Below are positions 1 through 11,192 of a stretch of DNA of 11,192 bases, piece by piece (within the stretch, counting starts at the first letter, position 1; each line of letters opens with the position of its first letter). The notes under the pieces were generated by a model that did no database searches, was not told the DNA's origin, and worked only from the letters and a program-made list of their open reading frames with translations. The DNA lies in the IMG/VR virus record IMGVR_UViG_3300045988_001928, positions 1-11,192 of that record, one strand, 5' to 3'. The position numbers and the translations under genes are program-made. The stretch comes from a virus.

Positions 1-57
1 AAGGTACGCTACTGACCCATATTTAACATTTCCCAACGCACATTTAACGGTTGCTAA

Positions 58-86
58 CAGACTTTGGCACGCTTTTTGCTATGGGT
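58..86. repeat. ITR-internal 29-nt direct repeat, copy 1 (cagactttggcacgctttttgctatgggt)
   Basis: Matches 117..145 at 26 of 29 positions with a 59-nt period. Mirrored in the right ITR at 11107..11135. Preceded by tttaacatttc at 22..32. Confidence 0.85.
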
Positions 87-116
87 CGCCCTTACCGTTT
101 TTTTAACATTTCGCAC

Positions 117-145
117 CAGACTTTGGCACGGTTTTTGTTATGCGT
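117..145. repeat. ITR-internal 29-nt direct repeat, copy 2 (cagactttggcacggtttttgttatgcgt)
   Basis: 26 of 29 identical to 58..86. Mirrored at 11048..11076. Preceded by a second tttaacatttc at 102..112. Confidence 0.85.
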
Positions 146-152
146 GTGCGTC

Positions 153-169
153 CGTGAAATTGTTTCACG
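153..169. repeat. Perfect 7-bp-stem palindrome cgtgaaa-ttg-tttcacg inside a left-end-specific 25-nt segment (147..171)
   Basis: The reverse complement of cgtgaaa is tttcacg. The segment has no counterpart next to the right ITR. Confidence 0.8.
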
Positions 170-225
170 TGGAACACAACACCAAGAGTTAAGAAAAGTT
201 AAAACGAAATAATTTGTGCACTTAT

Positions 226-256
226 GCTTGTATGTTAGAAAAATGTTGTATCTTTG
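226..256 (+). promoter_or_regulatory. Candidate left-end early promoter, Bacteroidota type: gCTTG-N18-TATCTTTG
   Basis: TATCTTTG at 249..256 fits the Bacteroides -7 consensus TAnnTTTG. An upstream CTTG lies at 227..230 with an 18-nt spacer. The same architecture occurs on the - strand at 10959..10989. Confidence 0.55.
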
Positions 257-283
257 TAGTGTTCAATTAAACGATTTGAAAAT

Positions 284-496
284 ATGAAAGAGTTACTACA
301 ACATTTCAGAGAGCAACCGAAAGAAGTAATTAAAGAAGTTGCAATGTGTTTAGCGATTTTCACCGTATGTGGGGCAATCTTGCAGGGTTGCAACGTACAA
401 CGTGAAAGCGCAAGCAGCGGCAAAGCAGTGATAATAACAACCGATACAACGTATATCTACCACGGCGGCGCGGTGAAGTTTCCAAAAACAAAATAA
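284..496 (+). CDS. Small hypothetical protein (70 aa), membrane-anchored or secreted; possible lipoprotein
   Basis: First ORF after the candidate promoter. It has a hydrophobic stretch AMCLAIFTVCGAILQG followed by Cys (a lipobox-like LQGC) and a polar C-terminal half. The CAATTAAA leader motif lies 12 nt upstream of the ATG. Confidence 0.5.
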   Translation: MKELLQHFREQPKEVIKEVAMCLAIFTVCGAILQGCNVQRESASSGKAVIITTDTTYIYHGGAVKFPKTK

Positions 497-500
497 CAAT

Positions 501-530
501 AAGTTTAACAATTAAAAGTTTACTACAATG
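501..530 (+). promoter_or_regulatory. 30-nt conserved leader aagtttaacaattaaaagTttactacaATG, copy 1
   Basis: 29 of 30 identical to 752..781. It ends in the start codon of the downstream ORF. Confidence 0.6.
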
Positions 531-740
531 AACGAAAAAAGAAACGCATTTGATGAGTTTAGTTTTGACGCTATGTCGGCGTTGGGTGGCCTTATGGCGT
601 GTAATGAAGTTTGCCGCAATCAACGTGCGGTTATGAAAATAAACCGCTTTCGTGCGTGGCTTATGGACTTGAAGCCGCAAGCCAACCCCGAACTGAACTT
701 GCCTTTTGACGGCGAGCTGCAAGGACAGACAGCCGAATAA
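528..740 (+). CDS. Hypothetical early protein (70 aa)
   Basis: ORF preceded by the conserved 30-nt leader, co-oriented and tightly spaced with its neighbours. No motif recognised. Confidence 0.5.
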   Translation: MNEKRNAFDEFSFDAMSALGGLMACNEVCRNQRAVMKINRFRAWLMDLKPQANPELNLPFDGELQGQTAE

Positions 741-751
741 CAAATAACAAG

Positions 752-781
752 AAGTTTAACAATTAAAAGATTACTACAATG
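752..781 (+). promoter_or_regulatory. 30-nt conserved leader aagtttaacaattaaaagAttactacaATG, copy 2
   Basis: 29 of 30 identical to 501..530. It ends in the start codon of ORF 779..1135. Confidence 0.6.
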
Positions 782-1135
782 AAAAGTTTTGCAAGTAAAT
801 TTAACAAGACCACGTTTGGCATTGACACAACCGATTTTCAGTACACCAGGTTAGCCGATATTTTCAACTCTGAAAATGAGGGCGGCAAAGATGTGATACA
901 CAAAATTAACGGGCTTTATGTCCACAAATCACAATTAGGCGACAGCCCAGTAATTATTGATGAGGAAAACAAACGGTTGGTGAACCTACCAAGCCACACC
1001 GCCGAAACGGTACGTGAAATTCTTACCGATGAGGAGGCGGTACAAACTATCAAAGACGGCAAAGTTGGGTACACGATTTACGAGTATGAGAGCCACGGCA
1101 AGAAGTGTTACTCTATTTCGTTTGTGGACTTGTAA
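779..1135 (+). CDS. Hypothetical early protein (118 aa). It occupies the slot where phi29 encodes its SSB and DNA-binding proteins, upstream of the TP and polymerase genes
   Basis: Clean ORF with the conserved leader. The functional suggestion rests on position only. Confidence 0.6.
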   Translation: MKSFASKFNKTTFGIDTTDFQYTRLADIFNSENEGGKDVIHKINGLYVHKSQLGDSPVIIDEENKRLVNLPSHTAETVREILTDEEAVQTIKDGKVGYTIYEYESHGKKCYSISFVDL

Positions 1136-1154
1136 GAGTTGGGAAAGTTATGTT

Positions 1155-1162
1155 TAACTTTG
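1155..1162 (+). promoter_or_regulatory. Candidate -7 box TAACTTTG for the replication module
   Basis: Fits TAnnTTTG and is followed by TAG, as in the boxes at 249 and 5272. A CTTG lies 22 nt upstream. It overlaps the foot of the 1163..1189 hairpin, so the assignment is uncertain. Confidence 0.35.
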
Positions 1163-1189
1163 TAGGGGTTGCAATGTTTGTAACCCCTA
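1163..1189 (+). terminator. 12-bp hairpin (taggggttgcaa-tgt-ttgtaaccccta) followed by a T-rich tail; possible terminator or attenuator after the early genes
   Basis: Arms pair by hand with one G-T wobble. Downstream sequence is tttaatataat. Confidence 0.4.
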
Positions 1190-1206
1190 TTTAATATAAT
1201 ACCGTT

Positions 1207-1860
1207 ATGGCAAAGTTAGGTTTCAAGATTAAATTTACAAAGTCTGTATTTGGAGCAACCCAACGGGCGAAAATCAAAAAAGAGATATTGCAAGCCGTGG
1301 AAAGCAGTCCCAAATATAGAAAAGAGATTGCTAGGGTTTTCCAAATGGCGAACCGCCGTATTCAGAACATAGAGCAAAGCGGACAACTTTCGCCAGCCGC
1401 GCAAGCGTTAAACAAAGGCGATGTAAAAGGGTTTACCAAGTTTTCAATGAAAGGCGATTGGAACGCCCTAAAAATTGAGTACGGCAAGGCGATTTCGTTT
1501 TTACGCCAGCCGACCAGTACGGCGCAAGGTGCAAGGCAGTACGGGCAACACCTGCAACGTATGTACGACTTAACGCCCGATGAGTATAACCTTATGGCAA
1601 GGAACTTGCAGGGCAAGTTAAACAGCGTTTCGGATAGTGATTTCGTGGAACGGTATTTGATGAGGTACAAAGATTTCACGGGCGAAATGGAGCAAAGCGC
1701 AAGCGATATAAGCACCCAAATAGAAAGTGAAGCGCAAAGCATATCACGGGCAATTGATGCAGAGATAGAAAGGCAGGCAAATGAAGTTGCGGACGCAATG
1801 GAGGATATGCAAAACGATATAGAACGCATATTGAGCAACTTTAATAAGTTTGGCTTATGA
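1207..1860 (+). CDS. Candidate terminal (priming) protein, 217 aa
   Basis: Lies immediately upstream of the protein-primed polymerase, and its stop overlaps the polymerase start (ATGA at 1857..1860), as in the phi29 gene 3 / gene 2 arrangement. The N-terminus is basic and the C-terminal third is acidic and helical. No confident sequence match recalled. Confidence 0.45.
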   Translation: MAKLGFKIKFTKSVFGATQRAKIKKEILQAVESSPKYRKEIARVFQMANRRIQNIEQSGQLSPAAQALNKGDVKGFTKFSMKGDWNALKIEYGKAISFLRQPTSTAQGARQYGQHLQRMYDLTPDEYNLMARNLQGKLNSVSDSDFVERYLMRYKDFTGEMEQSASDISTQIESEAQSISRAIDAEIERQANEVADAMEDMQNDIERILSNFNKFGL

Positions 1861-4067
1861 AAAAAATACCTTTTGAGTTACAAGAAAGAATAAACAGCCC
1901 GACCGAAATAACCGAAATACTGAAAGCCGCCGTAAATGAAAAAAACATTATCGGAAACAGCAAGGGCGAAAGGTTTTACAACATACCGTGTGCCTTTGAT
2001 ATTGAAACAACAAGTTTTTACCGTGATACGGACGGACGGGCGTACACATACGAGCAAGTGCAGCGTATGCAGGACAGCAACGGGCGCAAGGCGAAATTAG
2101 AGAAAGCCGCTATAATGTACGTTTGGCAGTTTGGCATAAACGGATATACGATAATGGGGCGCACGTGGGGCGAGTTTGTTACGATGATGCAGACCGTAAG
2201 CGAGGTTTTGCAGTTATCCGACAAATTGCGCCTTATTGTGTATGTGCATAACCTATCTTATGAATTTCAATTTTTGCGTAAATGGTTTGATTGGCAACGG
2301 GTTTTCTCAATAGACCTACGAAAGCCGATTTACGCTATTACAACGGGAAACATTGAGTTTAGATGTAGTTATTTGCTTTCGGGTTATTCTTTGGCAAAGT
2401 TGGGCGAGCAACTTATGAAATACAAGTGTGCAAAAGCCGTTGGCGATTTGGACTATCATTTAATAAGGCACAGCGAAACGCCGCTAACCGATACTGAAAT
2501 AGGGTATTGCATAAACGATATAAAAGTAGTTATGTGCTATATTCAGGAACGTATAGAGGAAAGCAAAGGAATAACCCACATACCGATAACAAAGACGGGG
2601 TTTGTGCGCAAGTATTGCCGTGCGCACTGTTTGCGTGAAAAGAGCGATTCAGGTAAGACCGTACCGAATTGGGATTATGCGAACCTGATGCAGGAACTAC
2701 AAGTAACGGGTATGAATGAATTTAATATGCTGCAACGTGCATTTGCAGGCGGTTTTACACACGCAAACGCCGAATATACGGACGAGATAATGTGTGACGT
2801 TGATAGTTACGATTTCACCAGCAGTTACCCATATGTAATGATTGCGGAAAAATACCCGATGTCGCAAGGCGTTGCAATTACGGTTAAGAGTACGGCGCAA
2901 TTTGATTTTCTAATATCAAAATATTGTTGCGTGTTCGATATTGAGTTTACTAACATATTTGCCAGCGAAACGCAAGACAACCCGATAAGCGCAAGCAAAT
3001 GTTTTGTTAAGGAAAACCCGTGCGAGAATAACGGGCGTATTGCGGCGGCGAGTAAGATAGCGTTAACGATTACAGATGTGGACTTTCATATTATCAAAAA
3101 CTTTTATACGTGGGAACGTATGCGAGTGGGTGAAATGTACTGTTACAAAAGAGAGTATTTGCCGACCCCGTTTGTTAAGTCTATCCTACATTTGTACGAA
3201 AGCAAGACAAAATTAAAAGGCGTTGAGGGCAAAGAAGCGGAGTACCTAAACAGCAAGGAAATGTTAAACAGTTGTTACGGTATGAGTGTAACAAACCCGT
3301 TGCGTGATGAGTTTACATATAACGGCGAATGGGATATTAACGCAATGTCGCCCGAACAAAAGCAGGAACTACTATATAAGTACAACACCAGCAAAAACCG
3401 TTTCTTGTTTTACCCGTGGGGTATCTTTGTAACCGCATACGCACGGCGCAACCTTTTCACGGGCATACATGAAGCGAAAGACGATTACATATACAGCGAC
3501 ACCGACAGCATTAAGATAATGAACGGCAAGGCGCATGAAGCGTATTTCAAGGCGTATAATATGCAGGTGCAAATGAAATTGCGTGCCGCCTGCAAATATC
3601 ACGGTTTGCCGTTTTCGCTTTGCGAGCCGCAAACGATAAAAGGCATAACAAAGACTTTGGGCGTGTGGGATTTTGAAGGTACATATACGAGGTTTAAGAC
3701 TTTGGGCGCAAAACGCTACATGGTGCAAGAACCGAACGCACTCAAAGCAGGCGGACGGGCATACGATTTCAGTTTAACCGTTTCGGGCGTAAACAAGAAA
3801 GCCGCAATACCGTATCTTATTGAAAAGTACGGCGAAAACGGGATATTCGATGCGTTTACCAATTATTTGGATATACCGCCGCAAGCAACGGGCAAAAACA
3901 TACACACTTACATAGACTACGAGATACAAGGCGAAATAACCGACTACAAAGGCAGCACGGCGCACTACAACGAACGCACTGGCGTACATTTAGAGCCGAC
4001 AGGGTACAGCCTATCTTTGTCGGTTATGTATATAAATTATTTGCGAGGTATCAAATTTAAGGACTAA
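1857..4067 (+). CDS. Family B DNA polymerase, protein-primed type (phi29 gp2-like), 736 aa
   Basis: Exo I is FDIETTS (D48, E50). Exo II is YVHNLSYEF (N132, E136). Exo III is YCINDIKV (Y217, D221). YxGG is FAGGF. Motif A is DFTSSYP (D319). Motif B is KEMLNSCYG (K467). Motif C is YSDTDS (nt 3492..3509). KxY is KRY (K619). Confidence 0.95.
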   Translation: MKKIPFELQERINSPTEITEILKAAVNEKNIIGNSKGERFYNIPCAFDIETTSFYRDTDGRAYTYEQVQRMQDSNGRKAKLEKAAIMYVWQFGINGYTIMGRTWGEFVTMMQTVSEVLQLSDKLRLIVYVHNLSYEFQFLRKWFDWQRVFSIDLRKPIYAITTGNIEFRCSYLLSGYSLAKLGEQLMKYKCAKAVGDLDYHLIRHSETPLTDTEIGYCINDIKVVMCYIQERIEESKGITHIPITKTGFVRKYCRAHCLREKSDSGKTVPNWDYANLMQELQVTGMNEFNMLQRAFAGGFTHANAEYTDEIMCDVDSYDFTSSYPYVMIAEKYPMSQGVAITVKSTAQFDFLISKYCCVFDIEFTNIFASETQDNPISASKCFVKENPCENNGRIAAASKIALTITDVDFHIIKNFYTWERMRVGEMYCYKREYLPTPFVKSILHLYESKTKLKGVEGKEAEYLNSKEMLNSCYGMSVTNPLRDEFTYNGEWDINAMSPEQKQELLYKYNTSKNRFLFYPWGIFVTAYARRNLFTGIHEAKDDYIYSDTDSIKIMNGKAHEAYFKAYNMQVQMKLRAACKYHGLPFSLCEPQTIKGITKTLGVWDFEGTYTRFKTLGAKRYMVQEPNALKAGGRAYDFSLTVSGVNKKAAIPYLIEKYGENGIFDAFTNYLDIPPQATGKNIHTYIDYEIQGEITDYKGSTAHYNERTGVHLEPTGYSLSLSVMYINYLRGIKFKD

Positions 4068-4079
4068 AATAACAAGATT

Positions 4080-5210
4080 ATGACTATAAGAAAGACAAAG
4101 GCAGAAAAGCCGAAATTTTACGACTTGAAAGCGATTTTAAGTAAGAACGCCGATTATAATGTTATCTTTGGCGAACGGTCAAACGGCAAGACTTATGCAG
4201 CCTTAAAATATGGTTTGGAAAACTATATCAAGACGGGAAAGCAAATGGCATATATACGCCGTTGGCGTGAGGATTTACGGGGCAAACGTGCCGAAAGTCT
4301 GTTTGCAAATCACACCGCAAACGGGCTTATTGAGGAACTGACAGAGGGCAAATTTAATGAAGTGTTCTATATGTCTAACAAGTGGTTTTTGTCGTACTAC
4401 GATGCAGAGAAAAACAAGCGGACACCCGACACAACCCCGTTTTGTTACGGGTTTTGCCTTTCAGAGCAGGAACACGAAAAAAGCAGCAGTTACCCGAATG
4501 TTACAACGATTGTGTTTGATGAGTTTCTGACACGGCGGTATTATTTGCCCGATGAGTTTATGTTGTTTATGAACCTTTTAAGCACTATAATACGCCAGCG
4601 CAACGATGTTAAGGTCTTCATGTTGGGGAACACCGTAAACAAGTTTTGCCCGTATTTTACCGAAATGGGGTTGAAGCAAGTGCCGTTTATGGAGCAGGGC
4701 ACGATTGATATATACCGCTTTGGCGAACACGGCGCAATAGTGGCGGTCGAGTATTGCAGCAGCACCATACAACACAAAGCCAGTAACAAGTATTTTTGTT
4801 TCGATAATCAAAACTTGCAGATGATTACTGGCGGTAAATGGGAACTTGCCGTTTATCCGCATTTGCCGTGCAAGTACAAGCCGCAAGACGTGTTGTTTGT
4901 GTATTATATCAAGTTTAACGATGTTGTTTTGCAGGGTAACATTATCCAGGTAGGCAACGAATGTTTTACGTACATACACGCCAAAACAACCCCGATAAAA
5001 GATGAGGAAAACAGCCTTATTTATTCGCTTGAAATGAACGGCAAACCGAACTACAAACGCAAGTTGTTAAGTACAGCGAGTTATGTAGAACAGCAAGTCG
5101 CACGGTTTTTCGCAATAGACAAAGTTTTCTACCAAGACAACGAAATAGGCGAAATTGTGCGCAATTATTTAATTACGAGCGCAAAGACAAACATAGTTTC
5201 GTTGAAATGA
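4080..5210 (+). CDS. DNA encapsidation (packaging) ATPase, phi29 gp16-like, 376 aa
   Basis: Walker A is GERSNGKT (nt 4170..4193). The segment EKSSSYPNVTTIVFDEF parallels recalled phi29 gp16 SEKSNAYPNVSTIVFDEF (Walker B). YIRRW parallels YVRRY. Confidence 0.9.
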   Translation: MTIRKTKAEKPKFYDLKAILSKNADYNVIFGERSNGKTYAALKYGLENYIKTGKQMAYIRRWREDLRGKRAESLFANHTANGLIEELTEGKFNEVFYMSNKWFLSYYDAEKNKRTPDTTPFCYGFCLSEQEHEKSSSYPNVTTIVFDEFLTRRYYLPDEFMLFMNLLSTIIRQRNDVKVFMLGNTVNKFCPYFTEMGLKQVPFMEQGTIDIYRFGEHGAIVAVEYCSSTIQHKASNKYFCFDNQNLQMITGGKWELAVYPHLPCKYKPQDVLFVYYIKFNDVVLQGNIIQVGNECFTYIHAKTTPIKDEENSLIYSLEMNGKPNYKRKLLSTASYVEQQVARFFAIDKVFYQDNEIGEIVRNYLITSAKTNIVSLK

Positions 5211-5220
5211 AAATTACGGG

Positions 5221-5257
5221 CGGTTTGGTGCTGATTTAGTGCCAAACCGACCGTTTT
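5221..5257 (+). terminator. Hairpin cggtttggtgc-tgattta-gtgccaaaccg followed by gaccgtttt; probable terminator after the replication/packaging block
   Basis: 11-bp stem with two G-U pairs when read as RNA. The T-run is separated from the stem by 4 nt. Confidence 0.5.
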
Positions 5258-5271
5258 ACAAATAAAATGTT

Positions 5272-5279
5272 TATCTTTG
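5272..5279 (+). promoter_or_regulatory. Candidate -7 box TATCTTTG for the structural module
   Basis: Identical octamer to the left-end box at 249..256 and followed by a similar TA(A)GT. It sits between a hairpin and the first structural-module ORF. Confidence 0.5.
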
Positions 5280-5304
5280 TAAGTAGTAACTAAATAATAA
5301 CGAT

Positions 5305-5511
5305 ATGGACGCAAATACTATTATTCAGATTGTTTCAAGTTTGGGTTTTCCGATTGTGATGTGTGGGGCGTTGTTTTGGTACATTGTGAAACAAAGGCAG
5401 GCGCACCAAGAAGAGACGGAACACCTAAAAGACACGATTGCGGAAAATACGAAAGTGTTAGCCGAACTTACAACCCTAATTAAAGTTTTGACAGATGAAA
5501 AGGAAAGATAA
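5305..5511 (+). CDS. Small single-pass membrane protein (68 aa), YvrJ-like; holin-like candidate
   Basis: N-terminal hydrophobic segment IIQIVSSLGFPIVMCGALFWYIV followed by a charged helical tail. The GFPIV core recalls the YvrJ small-protein family. It overlaps the connector gene start by 17 nt. Confidence 0.5.
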   Translation: MDANTIIQIVSSLGFPIVMCGALFWYIVKQRQAHQEETEHLKDTIAENTKVLAELTTLIKVLTDEKER

Positions 5512-6583
5512 CATTTACAAGTTGTACCAAGCGCAAATAAGGGATAAGGACACCGCCGTAACCGAATTTATTGCGAACACTTTGGCGAAAACTCAAAGTA
5601 TGTTTGAGTACGAGGGTTTGCCCGAAAGCATACCGCAAAAAGAATTGGAGCGGCTTTTGCAGACAACGGGCAACGCTTTTGTTACCAGCGTGGACGGCGT
5701 TTTGTATGCGCTATCGGGCGGCAAGGGCGGCGAACCCGATGTTTACGGACGGGCAACGCTTTACACCGTGGCGAACCCTGCATTAAAGTTAAACAAAACC
5801 TACGATATACAGAAAGACGGGGTTTTGATTGAGAATGACAGCAACGGCGAAAGCCTTTTGCCGCTGATTGGGCGTTATGCGGTTTTGCATACTGACGGTC
5901 TTATTTCGTTGAACACGGCGAGCATTTTAACCCGTATTACAATGCTGATAAGTGCCAGCGATGATAAGACGAAACAAAGTGCCGATGAGTTTTTGTGCAA
6001 GATACAAGACGGCGAGTTTTCTATTATCGGGGAAAACGCTTTTTTCAAGGGCGTAAATATGCAGACCGCACCGACCACAAACAGCGTGTACATTACGCAA
6101 CTTATTGAACTGATACAGTACTACAAGGCGAGTATGTACAACGAATTAGGGCTAAATGCAAACTACAACATGAAACGGGAACGCCTAAATTTGGGCGAGG
6201 TTAGCATGAATGTAGATGTACTTTTGCCGTATGTGGATAATATGCTAAAAGAAAGACAAAATGCAGTTGAAAAGATTAACGCAATGTTTGACACCGAAAT
6301 TTCGGTTAAACTTGCTTCAAGTTGGGGTTTGGAACGTGATAATTACAACGCTTTGGCGGCTGATTTGGAAACGGCAAAGGAAACCCCCGACCCGACAGAG
6401 GAAACAACTGGAACGGACGGAAACGAACCCGACCCGACAGAGGAAACAACCGAAACGGACGGAAACGACACCGAAACGACCGAAACAGAGGAAACAGAGG
6501 AAACGAAAGAAACGGAAACGGAAACGGACGGTAACGATACCGAAACAGAGGAAACAGACGAAAACAAAGAGGATAAGCAATGA
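5495..6583 (+). CDS. Head-tail connector (portal) protein, phi29 gp10-like, with a ~70-aa acidic repetitive C-terminal extension
   Basis: FEYEGLPESIP parallels recalled gp10 FEWENLPPTIN. DVYGRATLY parallels DVYNQATVF. NANYNMKRERLNLGEV parallels NANLEKKERMVTDEV. RQNAVEKINAMF parallels REEACEKINELY. Confidence 0.9.
   Translation: MKRKDNIYKLYQAQIRDKDTAVTEFIANTLAKTQSMFEYEGLPESIPQKELERLLQTTGNAFVTSVDGVLYALSGGKGGEPDVYGRATLYTVANPALKLNKTYDIQKDGVLIENDSNGESLLPLIGRYAVLHTDGLISLNTASILTRITMLISASDDKTKQSADEFLCKIQDGEFSIIGENAFFKGVNMQTAPTTNSVYITQLIELIQYYKASMYNELGLNANYNMKRERLNLGEVSMNVDVLLPYVDNMLKERQNAVEKINAMFDTEISVKLASSWGLERDNYNALAADLETAKETPDPTEETTGTDGNEPDPTEETTETDGNDTETTETEETEETKETETETDGNDTETEETDENKEDKQ
6386..6469 (+). 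repeat. Two tandem 42-nt in-frame repeats (39 of 42 identical) encoding PDPTEETTGTDGNE and PDPTEETTETDGND
   Basis: Copies at 6386..6427 and 6428..6469. They are followed by degenerate GAAAC(A/G)-type repeats up to the stop codon. Confidence 0.9.
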
Positions 6584-7152
6584 AATACAGCGAACTATTT
6601 ACAACGGGTAACGGGATATTCGCAACCGTTTTCAAGACCGAATATCCGACAGAGTACGCCGCAATTTTCGGCGATACCGCACCCGAAAAGTTAGACGCTT
6701 ACGCCTTACTGATGTACGGCGGCAAGACAGTTGTAAGCAGCATAACCAGCGACAACGCAAAAGATGTTGTTTCGGCGGTTATTGCGGTAAACGTGCAAGG
6801 TTGGGAACGGGAAGCGGCGGCGATGTTAGCCGATTACGATGTACTGACACCCGTAACGGGCAACGTGGAACGTACCGAAACAGTTACTTTGCAGGAAAGC
6901 ACCGACAACACCGAAACGGGCGCAAACAAGGCTTTCAACGACACCGATTTTTCAGACAGCGACCGAAAGACCGCCAACGATGAGAGAAACCGCACAGAAA
7001 GCCGCAAAACGACCGAAACAAGCAAAGGAACGGGCGCAAGCAAATCAATTTCGGGCGAAATTGCAAAAGAATTGCAGTTAAGGCGTGATAATTGGCGAAA
7101 AAATATTATCTTCGCACTTGTAAGAGAGATTACAACGAGTATTTACGAATAA
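6580..7152 (+). CDS. Hypothetical assembly/structural protein (190 aa); scaffold or head-tail adaptor candidate by position
   Basis: ATGA overlap with the connector gene stop at 6580..6583. It lies between the connector and major capsid genes. The centre is polar and disorder-like and the C-terminus is basic and helical. Confidence 0.6.
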   Translation: MKYSELFTTGNGIFATVFKTEYPTEYAAIFGDTAPEKLDAYALLMYGGKTVVSSITSDNAKDVVSAVIAVNVQGWEREAAAMLADYDVLTPVTGNVERTETVTLQESTDNTETGANKAFNDTDFSDSDRKTANDERNRTESRKTTETSKGTGASKSISGEIAKELQLRRDNWRKNIIFALVREITTSIYE

Positions 7153-7173
7153 CTAATTTTAATTTTTAGCAAT

Positions 7174-8364
7174 ATGGAAATAAAACAGATTTACACGCTT
7201 ATTAACAGCGTATCGGGTGAGGTGTTGGGGCGTACTGATATTGTCGCCGAAGACCTTACTGGCATTGTGGATTTAGGCACGGAAGTGTTTAACCAAAATG
7301 CGGTTGACAATTACGTAAAATCACTTGTAAACCATATCGGCAAGGTGATTTTCGTAAACCGACCTTATGTGGGTAAAGTGCCGAGCGTTTTAATGGATGC
7401 TTGGGAGTTTGGAAGCGTATTGGAAAAAATAAGTGCCGATGTTCCCGAAGCCGAGGAAAACGACACGTGGAACTTGAAGGACGGGCATACCTATTCGCAA
7501 GATGTGTTCCACAAACCGACCGTTTCGGCAAAGTTTTTCAACTCAAAGGTTACGTTTGAAGTGCCCGTATCAATCACCGAAAGACAGGTTAAGGAAAGTT
7601 TCAGCAACGCCGCACAGTTGAACGGCTTTATTTCGATGATTTATGCAGCGGTTGAAAAGAGCATGACAATTAAGGCAGACGCTTTAATCATGCGCACAAT
7701 TAACAACATGATTGCGGAAACCGTTTTGGCTGATGCGGTTGCATTTGGCGGTACGGTAGGCGACCTTACAAGTGCCACCCTTTCAAGTGCCAGCACTGCA
7801 AGATGCGTAAACCTTTTGAAGTTGTACAACGACAAGACAGGGGCAGAAACACCGCTTACGGCTGCAAAGGCGATAACCGACCCCGATTTTATCCGCTTTG
7901 CGTCTTACGTAATGGGAACTTACGCCGACCGTCTCCAAAGCATTTCCACCGTGTTCAATGTTGGTGGCAAGGAAAGGTTTACCCCGAAAGATATGTTACA
8001 CGTTGTACTTTTGTCTGACTTTGCAAAGTCGGCGCAAACCTATCTTTATTCTGACACCTACAACCGTGGCGATGTACTGTTACCGCAAGCCGAAACAGTA
8101 CCGTTTTGGCAAGGCAGCGGCAAGAACTACGCCTTTGAGAACACTGGGCATATCACGGTTAAGGAAAGCGGCGGCAAAAGCGTTGAAATTTCGGGCGTGT
8201 TGGGCGTAATGTTCGACCGTGATGCGTTGGGCGTTTGCAATCTTGACAGACGGGTAACAACGAACTACAACGCAAAGGCAGAGTTTTTCAACAACTATTA
8301 CAAGTTTGACGCAGGGTATTTCAACGATACAAACGAAAACTTTGTAGTATTCTTTATTGAGTAA
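7174..8364 (+). CDS. Major capsid protein, 396 aa
   Basis: The position follows the connector and scaffold-slot genes. DNYVKSLVNHIGKVIFVN parallels recalled phi29 gp8 NDFITSLVDRIGLVVIRQ. The gene is followed by the strongest terminator in the window. Confidence 0.8.
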   Translation: MEIKQIYTLINSVSGEVLGRTDIVAEDLTGIVDLGTEVFNQNAVDNYVKSLVNHIGKVIFVNRPYVGKVPSVLMDAWEFGSVLEKISADVPEAEENDTWNLKDGHTYSQDVFHKPTVSAKFFNSKVTFEVPVSITERQVKESFSNAAQLNGFISMIYAAVEKSMTIKADALIMRTINNMIAETVLADAVAFGGTVGDLTSATLSSASTARCVNLLKLYNDKTGAETPLTAAKAITDPDFIRFASYVMGTYADRLQSISTVFNVGGKERFTPKDMLHVVLLSDFAKSAQTYLYSDTYNRGDVLLPQAETVPFWQGSGKNYAFENTGHITVKESGGKSVEISGVLGVMFDRDALGVCNLDRRVTTNYNAKAEFFNNYYKFDAGYFNDTNENFVVFFIE

Positions 8365-8392
8365 CTCAATAAGTATTAGATTGTTTAACTTT

Positions 8393-8440
8393 GGGCGGTG
8401 TGGGTGCATGTGAAAGCGCACCGCACCGCCTTTTTTCTTT
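8393..8440 (+). terminator. Rho-independent terminator after the capsid gene
   Basis: GC-rich stem ggcggtgtgg(g)tgc paired with gcaccgcaccgcc, about 13 bp with one bulge and one G-U pair, followed by TTTTTTCTTT. Confidence 0.75.
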
Positions 8441-8446
8441 GCAGAT

Positions 8447-8890
8447 ATGACAACGATAAACTTTTATTCATACAACGGACACCCTAACACGGTAAACAAG
8501 CAATTAGGAGACTTTACGGCGATTGAGGGCGATTTGCGGCAAACTTTCGATGTGTTGCGCCCGACCGTAACACTACGAAAGCATCCCCGACCGACTTTCA
8601 ATTATTGTTACATACCCGATTTAGGGCGTTATTATTTCGTGGATAGGGTAAGTTTTGAGGGAAACAACGCCTACGAACTTACGTTGCATGTTGACGTGCT
8701 TAAAACCTACGAAAGCGAAATTTTGGCGGCAACTGGGCGTGTATCTGAAAGCGACAACCCCGACCCGTATATTTCAAACCGTGAAACGGTTTACAAGCGC
8801 ACCCCGAATTTTGAGAAAGTACCTTTTGCAAATACGGGCTTACTGAATGAAACTGGTGGAATTATTATGGTAACATTAAAAGGAAATTAA
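8447..8890 (+). CDS. Tail protein (147 aa) resembling the N-terminal domain of the phi29 gp9 tail knob
   Basis: NYCYIPDLGRYYFVDRVSFEGNNAYELTLHVDVLKTYESEI parallels recalled gp9 [48 protein letters not shown]. Confidence 0.55.
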   Translation: MTTINFYSYNGHPNTVNKQLGDFTAIEGDLRQTFDVLRPTVTLRKHPRPTFNYCYIPDLGRYYFVDRVSFEGNNAYELTLHVDVLKTYESEILAATGRVSESDNPDPYISNRETVYKRTPNFEKVPFANTGLLNETGGIIMVTLKGN

Positions 8891-8893
8891 AAT

Positions 8894-10504
8894 ATGGCAA
8901 CATGGACTAACAACGTACCTAACACGTTTTATCCTGACGGTGGCAACACGTTTACAAATAGTGTTGGCACTTTCGACCTTGAATGTGAAAAAGGTTATAT
9001 TTTTGATGGGGATATAACCGTAAAATATAACGGTAATACAACTATCATATTAGAGCAAAACGAAACGAAAACGAAGGCTACAAAAGCGGTATCAAATTAT
9101 ATTGGAACATATGGCGTTACTTTTAAAGGCAAGACCAAACAGGTGTCATCGCCTAAACCGCCGTTTACAGGGCAAAACAACGTACCTAACACAGCATACA
9201 CGGATAACAGCGATTACGATGCGGAAACGCTGAATTTCGTGCTTACGTGCGATAATGGGTATATATTTGACGGGCAACCGACATTCAAATATAGGAACGG
9301 TAATACAGGCTTATTTGAAACCGTTACGGGAGTGTTAAGTGAAAACGACACCGTAGCCACGTTCACGGGAACAGGGTATTACGATAGTAGCGAGGTTGTA
9401 ATAAATGGAAACACCAAGAAAAAAGAAGAGCCAAAGGTATATTTTAAAGTTACCACAGGTTTAACAAATTGTAAGGGTGTGAATATTCCCGAACAATACG
9501 AGGCGGACACGGAAGTGACAATAACGCTAAAAGCCAACACAAATGCTGAATTTGTAAGCGATGAACCCCGCCGCCCAGTTGTGCAACTTTATGACAAATA
9601 CGGTGATTTTACAGCGTTTCCGATGAATATAAGCGAGGATAAGAAAACCGCAAGTTTAACCATATTGTTAGACACTGAAAAATACGACCCAAGCAAAGGT
9701 ATTTACATAGGAGCGGACGCCGAAGTTACCAGCGTAATAGGTGAACATTACGGTGCAATTAATGTGTATTTGGTAACGCTTGATGATTTGGAAGCCTTTT
9801 CTAAAAAGCGGTTTTTCCGTGAAACGGGTAAAGACCCGAGTACGGGCGTTGAAATATACGAAAACATTGATTTAGGCGAATATGTTAACCGAATAAAGCG
9901 TATTTATACGAATATCAATTCAAAAGGGCAGGACGTTATACGATGTGGCAATTACAACACGGAAGTAAACGCAAATATACCTGAAACGGATAAAATAACG
10001 CTTGATTTCGGCACGGCGGTTGTACCAGCGCACAATGAGGACAACACCGACTACGAAAGCGAAATACAAATCTTTTTGCCGTTTGCGGGCTTTGTAAACC
10101 TCAATACCGATTATGCAGGTAAAACGATAGCTTTGCAGTACGTTATAAACGTGGTAACGGGCAACGGGGTTGCGCTTTTGTCCTGCAACGGCGTTGTATT
10201 TCAAGTTGAGGAAACAGAGCCAAGCAGCGAAATAATATACCTTTCACCAAGCACCCAAGTTAAAACCGTTGGCGGCGATGATTGGAACGAAAGGTTATAT
10301 TACGGCTTAGAACCTTACATTTACTGCAAGTGGTACGAGAGCGCAAGCAACGGGCGAAACACCGACCGACAAGCAGGCATTTTAGGCGATTTCAGAGGGT
10401 TTAATATGTTCGATGATGTTACACCCATACACACCGCCGAAATGCTGACAGAGGAACAAGAAATGATATACACGGCTTTGTCTGACGGCGTTTATATTGA
10501 GTAA
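8894..10504 (+). CDS. Large tail protein (536 aa): two tandem ~89-aa N-terminal modules plus a C-terminal region with tail-knob-like segments; probable receptor-binding / distal tail protein
   Basis: It is the largest ORF in the structural module. NNVPNT...C(E/D)(K/N)GYIFDG...(V/F)KY is repeated at aa 6-45 and 95-133. IFLPFAGFVNLNTDYAGKTIALQYVINV loosely parallels gp9 [25 protein letters not shown]. Confidence 0.6.
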   Translation: MATWTNNVPNTFYPDGGNTFTNSVGTFDLECEKGYIFDGDITVKYNGNTTIILEQNETKTKATKAVSNYIGTYGVTFKGKTKQVSSPKPPFTGQNNVPNTAYTDNSDYDAETLNFVLTCDNGYIFDGQPTFKYRNGNTGLFETVTGVLSENDTVATFTGTGYYDSSEVVINGNTKKKEEPKVYFKVTTGLTNCKGVNIPEQYEADTEVTITLKANTNAEFVSDEPRRPVVQLYDKYGDFTAFPMNISEDKKTASLTILLDTEKYDPSKGIYIGADAEVTSVIGEHYGAINVYLVTLDDLEAFSKKRFFRETGKDPSTGVEIYENIDLGEYVNRIKRIYTNINSKGQDVIRCGNYNTEVNANIPETDKITLDFGTAVVPAHNEDNTDYESEIQIFLPFAGFVNLNTDYAGKTIALQYVINVVTGNGVALLSCNGVVFQVEETEPSSEIIYLSPSTQVKTVGGDDWNERLYYGLEPYIYCKWYESASNGRNTDRQAGILGDFRGFNMFDDVTPIHTAEMLTEEQEMIYTALSDGVYIE

Positions 10505-10524
10505 CTGCAAGGCAGGATAAAAAG

Positions 10525-10560
10525 AAAGGCGGCAACTTGATTGTTACCGCCTTTTCTTTT
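10525..10560. terminator. Bidirectional terminator between convergent genes
   Basis: Hairpin aaaggcggcaac-ttgatt-gttaccgccttt with one mismatch, flanked by an A-run upstream and TTTTCTTTT downstream. It therefore reads as stem plus U-run on both strands. Confidence 0.7.
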
Positions 10561-10572
10561 GCTTTCTGATTG

Positions 10573-10926
10573 TTATTTGTCATGCAATGTTTGAATGCCC
10601 GTTAAACCGATGTACAATTTTGTGGGGAAACATTCGCAAAAGGTTTCGAACCGCTCGACCAACTTTTCAGTCGCTATAAAGTCGTATGCTTGATTTTTGC
10701 AGGCAACTTCCATTGCGAACTTGTTGCGTATATCACGGTTAAACAAGATTAGATTGTCCAGCGTATCGGCAAGCGTTTGCATACTTTCGGCAACGTTTTC
10801 AAGGTTTGTGCGAATTTCGGGCGCATTTACCGCCAAAAACTCAATGTGTTTCTTACTTTGCAATACCAAGTTTTGCATTGCGTTTAACACTTTCTGATTT
10901 TCAAAAATTAAATCTGTCGTTTTCAT
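10573..10926 (-). CDS. Hypothetical, apparently helical protein (117 aa); the only leftward gene, at the right genome end
   Basis: Clean ORF with its own promoter-like element. It has the same CAATTAAA leader, 12 nt from the ATG, as the left-end early genes. Confidence 0.6.
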   Translation of the reverse strand: MKTTDLIFENQKVLNAMQNLVLQSKKHIEFLAVNAPEIRTNLENVAESMQTLADTLDNLILFNRDIRNKFAMEVACKNQAYDFIATEKLVERFETFCECFPTKLYIGLTGIQTLHDK

Positions 10927-10958
10927 TTTTATAAAGTATTTAATTGTTTAACACTATG

Positions 10959-10989
10959 CAAATGTACGCATTTTATTTTACCTGCAAGC
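10959..10989 (-). promoter_or_regulatory. Candidate right-end early promoter (reads on the - strand gCTTG-N18-TACATTTG)
   Basis: The - strand octamer TACATTTG spans 10966 down to 10959. CTTG spans 10988 down to 10985, giving an 18-nt spacer. It is followed by (ca)TAGTGTT...CAATTAAA, as at the left end. Confidence 0.55.
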
Positions 10990-11046
10990 GGTTTGCGTGT
11001 TATTTTATGTTAAATTATTCTTTTAACTTTGTTTAACAATGTGTTC

Positions 11047-11192
11047 CACGCATAACAAAAACCGTGCCAAAGTCTGGTGCGAAATGTTAAAAAAACGGTA
11101 AGGGCGACCCATAGCAAAAAGCGTGCCAAAGTCTGTTAGCAACCGTTAAATGTGCGTTGGGAAATGTTAAATATGGGTCAGTAGCGTACCTT
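11047..11192. repeat. Right inverted terminal repeat (ITR-R), 146 bp
   Basis: Exact reverse complement of 1..146. Confidence 0.97.

Follow-up and report, generated by a model that had tools for sequence, protein, structure and literature searches.

Bacteroidota-type promoters and Shine-Dalgarno-less gene starts on a small phi29-type gut phage point to a probable change of host phylum

Which bacteria could read the genes of a phi29-like phage whose expression signals look like those of Bacteroidota? The question is raised by the virus genome IMGVR_UViG_3300045988_001928 (positions 1 to 11,192 of the IMG/VR record; this whole stretch of 11,192 nucleotides is called the window below), for which a preliminary description had noted candidate promoters with the Bacteroides -7 consensus TAnnTTTG, an almost complete lack of Shine-Dalgarno (SD) sequences, and a host that would be an outlier for the group. 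The phi29-like starting point holds. The window encodes a protein-primed family B polymerase (pPolB; PF03175, E 6e-10; phrog_1907, E 3e-71), a gp16-type packaging ATPase (g6; PF05894, E 3e-24), a gp10-type connector (g8; PF05352, E 4e-14) and a Phi29_MCP major capsid protein (MCP; g10; PF25622, E 2.9e-56) among 13 closely packed genes, 12 of them on the + strand, and it is closed at both ends by perfect inverted terminal repeats (ITRs; 1-146 and 11047-11192, 146-nt arms, 100% complementary), from which it follows that this is a complete linear protein-primed genome: that of a tiny (11.2 kb) tailed phage, an Astrithrvirus-like podophage of the phi29 type. No RNA polymerase or sigma factor gene is encoded in the window, so that the host holoenzyme must read every gene, and the combination of Bacteroidota-type signals with the lack of a phage RNA polymerase makes a Bacteroidota host probable. 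We infer the host from this logic of the signals and from a comparative contrast with related phages, and conclude that the phage most probably infects Bacteroidota (Bacteroidales).

All five TAnnTTTG sites reported in the preliminary description are present, at the coordinates given there. It had also raised the possibility that the motif is no commoner than base composition predicts; we counted 34 copies over the two strands, where dinucleotide-preserving shuffles gave 14.4 ± 3.7 and at most 26 (none of 200 reached 34), while sigma-70-like sites are not enriched in the window (22 vs 21.3 expected). More informative than the count is the placement, since all five genes with 40 nt or more of non-coding DNA in front of them (gap genes) have a sense-strand TAHHTTTG, H being any base except G, 25-80 nt upstream, where chance would supply one for about 6% of such genes even at the motif's own inflated genome density. 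Conservation was then counted in 80 related IMG/VR genomes, in each of which the orthologous start codons were located, and a box at a fixed distance upstream was found for six genes, setting out six candidate promoters, P1 to P6. For these, transcription start sites (TSSs) were predicted with the T of the box set as -12, which gives leaders of 21-55 nt.

P1 (TATCTTTG, 249-256, + strand) has a TTG at 228-230 with an 18-nt spacer, lies at -35/-36 from the ATG of g1 in 65 of 66 relatives, and is predicted to drive g1-g3 from a TSS at ~261. P2 (TAACTTTG, 1155-1162, +), found before g4 in 58 of 60 relatives, would drive g4-g6 from ~1167, and P3 (TATCTTTG, 5272-5279, +), kept before g7 in 80/80 as TATC or TACC, would drive g7-g9 and possibly g10 from ~5284. 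P4, the site of a capsid-gene promoter within g9 (7107-7114, +; predicted TSS ~7119), was overlooked in the preliminary description: in 78/81 relatives TATCTTTG stands 65-68 nt before the MCP ATG, and the window has TATCTTCG. P5 (TAACTTTG, 8386-8393, +; 77/81 relatives) is predicted to drive the tail genes g11-g12 from ~8398, and P6 (TACATTTG, 10959-10966, - strand), with a TTG 18 nt upstream, to drive the leftward gene g13 from ~10954; in relatives it is retained in 41 of 42 cases, with TAAC, TACA, TATC or TACT as the first half of the box.

Across the relatives, the position and orientation of the boxes are kept while the free bases vary (TATC, TACC, TAAC, TACA, TACT), and over 231 unique sites a G never occupies either free position and a tract rich in A precedes the box at a distance of 5-11 nt. 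The flanks of P3 and P6 are only 84-87% identical, with the box retained in 98-100% of genomes. In distant relatives whose g7 is 44-53% identical (L086, L087, L089, L108 and L113), the flanks of this gene can no longer be aligned, and a TAnnTTTG still stands 25-40 nt upstream of it. These features agree with promoters of the Bacteroidota sigma factor sigma-ABfr, which share the -7 box with its non-G free bases and the A/T-rich upstream region: Baez et al. refined the consensus to TAHHTTTG with AT-rich motifs at -18 and -28 and a weak -33 element, and in B. thetaiotaomicron Ryan et al. found that 81% of the primary TSSs have a sigma-ABfr promoter. They differ in that the window mostly lacks the -33 TTTG and carries its boxes on a protein-primed podophage chassis. 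On these grounds the boxes appear to be active promoters, with transcription beginning near the predicted TSSs.

The gene starts of the window were described as almost devoid of SD sequences and as preceded by A/T-rich DNA, and both statements were borne out. An SD-like 4-mer occurs upstream of only 2 of the 13 genes, namely g9 (AGAGGA, formed by Glu codons in the acidic tail of g8, which overlaps it) and g12 (AAGGA), and positions -20 to -1 are 78% A+T against 57% genome-wide. An A stands at -13 in 12 of the 13 genes, at -14 in nine, at -11 in eight and at each of -12, -6 and -3 in seven, which resembles the mRNAs of Bacteroidetes, likewise without SD and reported to be enriched in A at -3, -6 and -11 to -15. 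The same starts look different in phages of other hosts: the g10 start region of the window (AATTTTAATTTTTAGCAAT-ATG) lacks the SD that is present there in each of the four cultured relatives from Proteobacteria (capsid-gene upstream sequences AAGAGGAAATAAAC, TAAGGAGTATGAAAAT and TAAGGTGATAAA in Proteobacteria phages vs TAATTTTTAACGAAA in the window's clade), and clear SDs precede the MCP, ATPase, connector, g7 and g11 genes of the Proteobacteria phages but not those of the clade. Two repeats touch on the subject of gene starts. A 51-nt direct repeat (88% identical; 482-532 and 733-783) spans the stop-to-start junctions before g2 and g3, with the sequence AAGTTTAACAATTAAAAGnTTACTACA-ATG, and on sequence grounds is a duplicated SD-less initiation cassette. 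Degenerate tandem repeats at the 3' end of g8 (6386-6572), which apparently code for an acidic Thr/Glu/Asp-rich tail as read from the DNA, are the source of the only strong SD-like strings of the genome.

As a control, all genomes were run through one crude gene caller and scored by two metrics, the gap genes that carry the motif and the fraction of genes with an SD. The window scored 5/5 and 0.15, and the 69 complete genomes of its clade have a median of five genes with the motif (0.6 expected) and a median SD fraction of 0. Two Bacteroides phages resemble the window, B40-8 with 9/23 gap genes and an SD fraction of 0.08, equal to background, and BS-TP3 with 3/7 and 0.11, whereas seven cultured phages of other hosts (T7, phi29, Amedibacillus AD70P2, astrithr, Phanie, K58 g2 and DU_PP_III) do not, having together 0/46 gap genes with the motif and SD fractions of 0.38-0.77. 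Two phi29-like gut genomes assembled from metagenomes, MT836125 and MT836155, have strong SDs and lack the motif.

The contrast extends to the closest cultured relatives by protein, the Astrithrvirus group (astrithr, assan and Astrid from Salmonella, DU_PP_III from Pectobacterium, Phanie from Acinetobacter, K58 g2 from Vibrio, and Shigella and Enterobacter isolates). Their genomes are of similar size (10.4-11.9 kb) and follow an identical order, from the terminal protein position through pPolB, gp16 ATPase, a small holin-like gene, connector, a 185-190-aa protein and MCP to a split tail knob and leftward right-end genes; DU_PP_III is annotated with terminal repeats, like the window, and amino acid identities to the window are 55-60% for the MCP, 51-55% for the ATPase and 43-46% for the polymerase. 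These phages differ in using SDs, in lacking TAHHTTTG boxes, in having Gammaproteobacteria as hosts and in showing no nucleotide match to the window, for which megablast found none among 50,697 phage records. The window thus shares the gene order and core proteins of the genus Astrithrvirus and lies below its nucleotide similarity, the genus threshold being given as ~70% intergenomic similarity (PMC11476376). In a quick neighbour-joining tree of the capsid, made without bootstrap, the SD-less genomes (the window's clade, L086-L089, L108 and L113) are monophyletic, stand apart from the cultured Proteobacteria phages and adjoin uncultured lineages that use SDs. Such a single SD-less branch fits one change of host type, and we consider it likely that the lineage jumped between host phyla and had its expression signals rewired in the process.

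The clade on this branch is a very large, very abundant and uncultured human-gut group. A relative is encoded by 342 IMG/VR contigs, and dataset 3300045988, which we take to be a human-gut collection, supplied most of the 80 genomes fetched; the capsid has at least 8000 homologues at E <= 1e-20, of which the best 120 are 93-100% identical, and a representative search with g12 returned 541 relatives. The sister lineage represented by L086 and L087 has capsids 80-81% identical to that of the window and a G+C content of 37%.

How far the phage is a host-range outlier depends on what it is compared with. The preliminary statement that characterised phi29-like podophages occur only in Firmicutes, Actinomyces or Mycoplasma is outdated, as the Astrithrvirus group grows on Salmonella, Shigella, Enterobacter, Pectobacterium, Acinetobacter and Vibrio, and a Gram-negative phi29-like branch is described in a 2024 review (Evseev et al., PMC11476376). 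Among cultured phages the window does stand out, none of 184 records with a gp16-type ATPase having a Bacteroidota host; yet the same review had already proposed a Bacteroidales host, from protein homology, for "Bacteriophage sp. isolate 2692_55609" of its cluster 30 (PMC11476376). According to its description there, that genome resembles the window in being small (12.1 kb, 42.5% GC), phi29-like, from human faeces and with a split tail knob, and differs in belonging to a separate MCP cluster nearest to Amedibacillus phage AD70P2; the MCP of the window is 58-60% identical to those of the cluster-23 Astrithrvirus phages and only 29-30% to that of AD70P2. The promoter passages considered here from the review concern phi29, and it contains no mention of Shine-Dalgarno sequences (PMC11476376). 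Already known, then, are the chassis, phi29-like phages of Gram-negative hosts and the suggestion of a Bacteroidales host for another genome. New are the demonstration, clear and testable, that transcription and translation signals have been rewired, the placing of a very abundant gut clade on the Bacteroidota side, and the side observations reported below.

The proposal of a Bacteroidota host stands as far as the match to Bacteroidota signals, the comparative contrast and the published consensus carry it, and an independent host link to go with them was not found. Several points weigh against it. Neither a spacer, nor a prophage, nor an isolate linking the clade directly to a host was found, carriage on a plasmid or episome gave no match in the plasmid collection, and our literature search met no published host assignment for the clade, the supplements of the palaeofaeces paper containing nothing on an Astrithrvirus-like unit. 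A probe in the style of clustered regularly interspaced short palindromic repeats (CRISPR) spacers, consisting of an 18-mer conserved in 75 relatives and one position 22 nt away required not to be the phage base, which excludes phage contigs, gave seven matches in Joint Genome Institute (JGI) metagenomes, none identical beyond ~20 nt and all attributable to chance; as it samples ~0.1% of the possible protospacers, the result is uninformative, and around the sole repeat-flanked match (L126) the repeats are degenerate. The 32 matches in genome collections are all contigs of metagenome-assembled genomes (MAGs), being whole or partial phage genomes, and spread over at least six phyla (among them Firmicutes, Bacteroidota, Melainabacteria, Actinobacteria and Omnitrophota), with the two closest binned to Scatosoma (Firmicutes) and Prevotella and two 80% relatives to Melainabacteria. 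On the side of the signals, a -33 TTTG, expected about 19-21 nt upstream, is weak or missing at four of the six sites (P1 and P6 alone show a TTG, at a spacing of 18 nt), this very genome has a degenerate capsid promoter (TATCTTCG), and the motif is also over-represented inside genes, where its retention tracks codon conservation, so that part of the raw motif excess is compositional. One item speaks for a Bacteroidota host, if indirectly: the SD-less sister lineage (L086, L087) encodes an M15 endolysin with its best cultured-phage matches among lysins of B. fragilis, B. salyersiae and crAss-like phages (46-50%). It belongs to that lineage and not to the window, however, Achromobacter phage lysins match it nearly as well (~44%), and a homologue search with it was filled by members of the clade.

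The taxonomy of the MAGs was considered as host evidence in its own right and rejected as binning noise, scattered as it is over many phyla. A separate observation concerns the MAGs themselves: in L084-L115, whole genomes of this ~11-kb family sit inside them, including two Melainabacteria bins, which amounts to contamination or mis-binning of those MAGs.

SD-poor translation is not confined to Bacteroidota, and the explanation that competes best, though we regard it as improbable, is a host from another SD-poor gut lineage such as Melainabacteria/Gastranaerophilales, with the boxes read by a different sigma factor or a phage-directed factor. It draws on independent studies having binned L086 and L087 into Melainabacteria and Gastranaerophilales MAGs; however, the binning of ~11-kb contigs is unreliable for the reason just given, P1 and P3 of these two genomes have the same TATCTTTG-CA boxes, and their lysin is closest to those of Bacteroides phages. 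Beyond this, the TAHHTTTG box with its non-G spacer and upstream A-rich tract is a specific sigma-ABfr signature, and 0/7 phages of other hosts show the motif.

Less probable still, with only a slim chance in our estimate, is that the motif is no host promoter at all, and instead a site for a phage protein analogous to p4 or p6 of phi29, or a by-product of composition and shared ancestry. The 80 relatives are indeed close (core proteins ~95% identical), which leaves much of the intergenic conservation inherited, coding DNA is enriched in the motif too, and a palindrome, TGTTTCACGTGAAACA, shows that these phages own regulatory sites. Yet TA..TTTG is kept where the free bases vary, the retention at P3 and P6 exceeds that of their flanks, the box recurs upstream of g7 amid unrelated flanks, and orientation and distance to the start codons fit leaders of 21-55 nt. 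A phage that brings no RNA polymerase needs promoters of the host type, for which the unenriched sigma-70-like sites offer no substitute, and the concurrent loss of SDs would be left unexplained by a DNA-binding site. That the host is a gammaproteobacterium and the signals merely atypical is very improbable, for even though the closest cultured phages all grow on Gammaproteobacteria and have an identical gene order, they possess strong SDs (38-77% of genes) and TAHHTTTG boxes at 0/21 gap genes, the window shows no enrichment of E. coli-type promoters, the SD-less clade forms a separate branch, and the promoters of Bacteroidetes and E. coli have been published as not interchangeable.

If the host is a member of the Bacteroidota, a very large uncultured clade of gut phages gains a probable host phylum, and isolation efforts would be pointed toward Bacteroides, Phocaeicola or Prevotella. 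The two branches would form a natural experiment, with the same 11-kb gene set running on SD signals in one and on TAHHTTTG boxes and SD-less, A-rich leaders in the other, a contrast that would show which changes a phage needs in crossing phyla. The six compact promoter/leader cassettes and the promoter-terminator junctions described below are testable parts for Bacteroides genetics, and a phi29-type polymerase with its terminal protein working in Bacteroidota would, if true, be of practical interest.

In the mechanism we propose for a Bacteroidota host, the genome would be expressed as five or six units: P1 with g1-g3 up to terminator T1, P2 with g4-g6 up to T2, P3 with g7-g9, P4 with g10 up to T3, P5 with g11-g12 up to T4, and the leftward P6 with g13, also up to T4. 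The units would start at a TAHHTTTG -7 box of the type read by the Bacteroidota primary sigma factor, sigma-ABfr, most of them would end at an intrinsic terminator, and translation would begin, with no pairing to an SD, on leaders that are rich in A/T and have A at -13, -14, -11, -6 and -3, in a Bacteroidota-like manner. The hairpins in question are T1 (1162-1190, +; -18.4 kcal/mol, z -4.7), which ends the g1-g3 unit and shows a compensatory stem change in relatives (GGGGTT/AACCCC to GGGGTG/CACCCC); T2 after g6 (5216-5254, +; -24.4 kcal/mol, z -5.8), with UUUU behind it; T3 downstream of the capsid gene (8393-8436, +; -28.8 kcal/mol, then U6), which is a strong intrinsic terminator; and T4 (10520-10560), bidirectional between the convergent g12 and g13 (-18.9 and -22.5 kcal/mol). 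Transcripts are predicted to have their 3' ends near 1195, 5258, 8436 and 10560/10520.

Two of these terminators are joined to promoters. At the junctions 1155-1190 and 8386-8436, the P2 and P5 boxes lie 0-2 nt before the hairpin, a direct abutment in which the window differs from Bacteroidota promoters, and the box-to-hairpin spacing is constant in relatives. Because the box abuts the hairpin, the predicted TSS falls inside the 5' arm of the terminator. Folding gives -18.4 and -28.8 kcal/mol for the full T1 and T3, as against -7.8 and -15.1 for transcripts beginning at 1167 and 8398, which lose the bottom 3-4 pairs and have a stem ending 4 nt before the U-run. Upstream transcripts, such as the abundant capsid mRNA, would form the full hairpin beside the U-tract and stop, while those initiated at P2 or P5 would form a shortened stem off the U-tract and read through. 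With less certainty than for the promoters themselves, the folding model thus suggests terminators that halt upstream transcripts and pass those from P2 and P5.

Between these signals the genes are arranged as follows. The left unit of small genes (284-1135, +), defined by gene calls, comprises g1 (284-496; 70 aa, whose hydrophobic segment closes with a lipobox-like LQGC motif), g2 (528-740) and g3 (779-1135). The g4-g6 unit (1207-5210, +), assigned from profile searches and comparison with relatives, begins with the 217-aa g4 directly upstream of the polymerase gene, in the position of a terminal protein gene; its product is 27-34% identical to those of same-position open reading frames (ORFs) in the Astrithrvirus group and has no family match. 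Profile searches also define the g7-g9 unit (5305-7152, +), made up of a small holin gene, g7 (5305-5511; phrog_4898, E 6e-9), the gp10 connector with its acidic repeat tail, g8 (5495-6583), and g9 (6580-7152), which matches astrithr gp07 by position. The capsid gene g10 (7174-8364, +) is followed by a tail unit assigned by position and homology (8447-10504, +), in which g11 (8447-8890) is the N-part of a split tail knob, by position and by homology to the "tail knob" of Phanie, and g12 (8894-10504) its C-part with variable N-terminal repeats. The 117-aa gene g13 (10573-10926, -), a gene call, occupies the right end.

Compared with phi29 and the Salasmaviridae, the window shares the protein-primed family B polymerase, the ITRs, the gp16 ATPase, the gp10 connector and the Phi29-type capsid, as well as the position of early-type genes at both genome ends. 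It differs in size (phi29 has 19.3 kb), in the length of its ITRs (146 bp vs 6 bp), in lacking homologues of the head fibre, the appendage and p13, and in its expression signals, phi29 having sigma-A promoters and strong SDs. No packaging RNA (pRNA) was detected in the window either (Rfam scan at E<=1, the sole hit being a sub-threshold ctRNA on T4), which is weak evidence in view of how fast pRNAs diverge.

The lysis genes present a further difference. Astrithr, Phanie, K58 g2 and DU_PP_III have an endolysin gene after the tail gene and the window has none there; no endolysin is recognisable in the window or among the accessory ORFs of 84 clade genomes, and the holin gene g7 is present. The site of the lysin gene in relatives corresponds to 10505-10572 of the window, and a lysin is present both in the Astrithrvirus phages and in the 80% sister lineage. 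As Acinetobacter phage Phanie reportedly depends on a myophage as helper (PMC11476376), a need for a helper may be considered for the window's clade as well.

Each ITR contains two inward-facing matches to the sigma-54 -24/-12 consensus (65-79 and 124-138 on the + strand; 11114-11128 and 11055-11069 on the - strand), with the sequences TTGGCACGctttTTGCT, a perfect GG-N10-GC match, and TTGGCACGgtttTTGTT. Four such matches compare with 0.04 expected. Of 69 complete clade genomes, 66 contain the motif, as do the divergent relatives L087, L108 and L113, which are SD-less; it is absent from the Astrithrvirus group, whose ITRs lack these repeats, and from phi29, AD70P2 and B40-8; Bacteroidales do encode rpoN (P. 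gingivalis PGN_1202). Judged by sequence, the repeats could be a sigma-54 promoter, or else an origin or DNA-binding repeat. Taken as a whole, the picture of one of the most abundant small gut phages as a phi29-type podophage that crossed into Bacteroidota, rewired every expression signal, lost its endolysin while keeping the holin, perhaps relies on a helper like Phanie, and carries both promoter-inside-terminator junctions and inward sigma-54-type ITR repeats is offered tentatively, as a reading that we hold to be less likely than not.

Three smaller observations concern the genome ends. The L120 contig of the European Nucleotide Archive (ENA ERZ1744836, 12,320 bp), with an identical capsid gene, has two leftward ORFs (274 and 262 aa) within its positions 1-1610, in the place of the window's left end and g1; either the left arm varies here or the ITRs have given rise to a chimeric assembly. 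At 11024-11031 (+) an extra TAACTTTG faces the right ITR and is kept in 54 of 59 relatives with no ORF downstream; it could start a short transcript towards the genome end or belong to a longer, imperfect form of the terminal repeat. Finally, the palindrome TGTTTCACGTGGAACA lies at 161-176, just inside the left ITR and ~75 nt upstream of P1, and perfect copies of TGTTTCACGTGAAACA adjoin promoters, gene starts and ITRs in L086, L087, L108 and L113 and are found in the SD-using gut phage MT836125 as well, a distribution suggesting that the palindrome is probably the operator of a phage-encoded regulator common to different host types.

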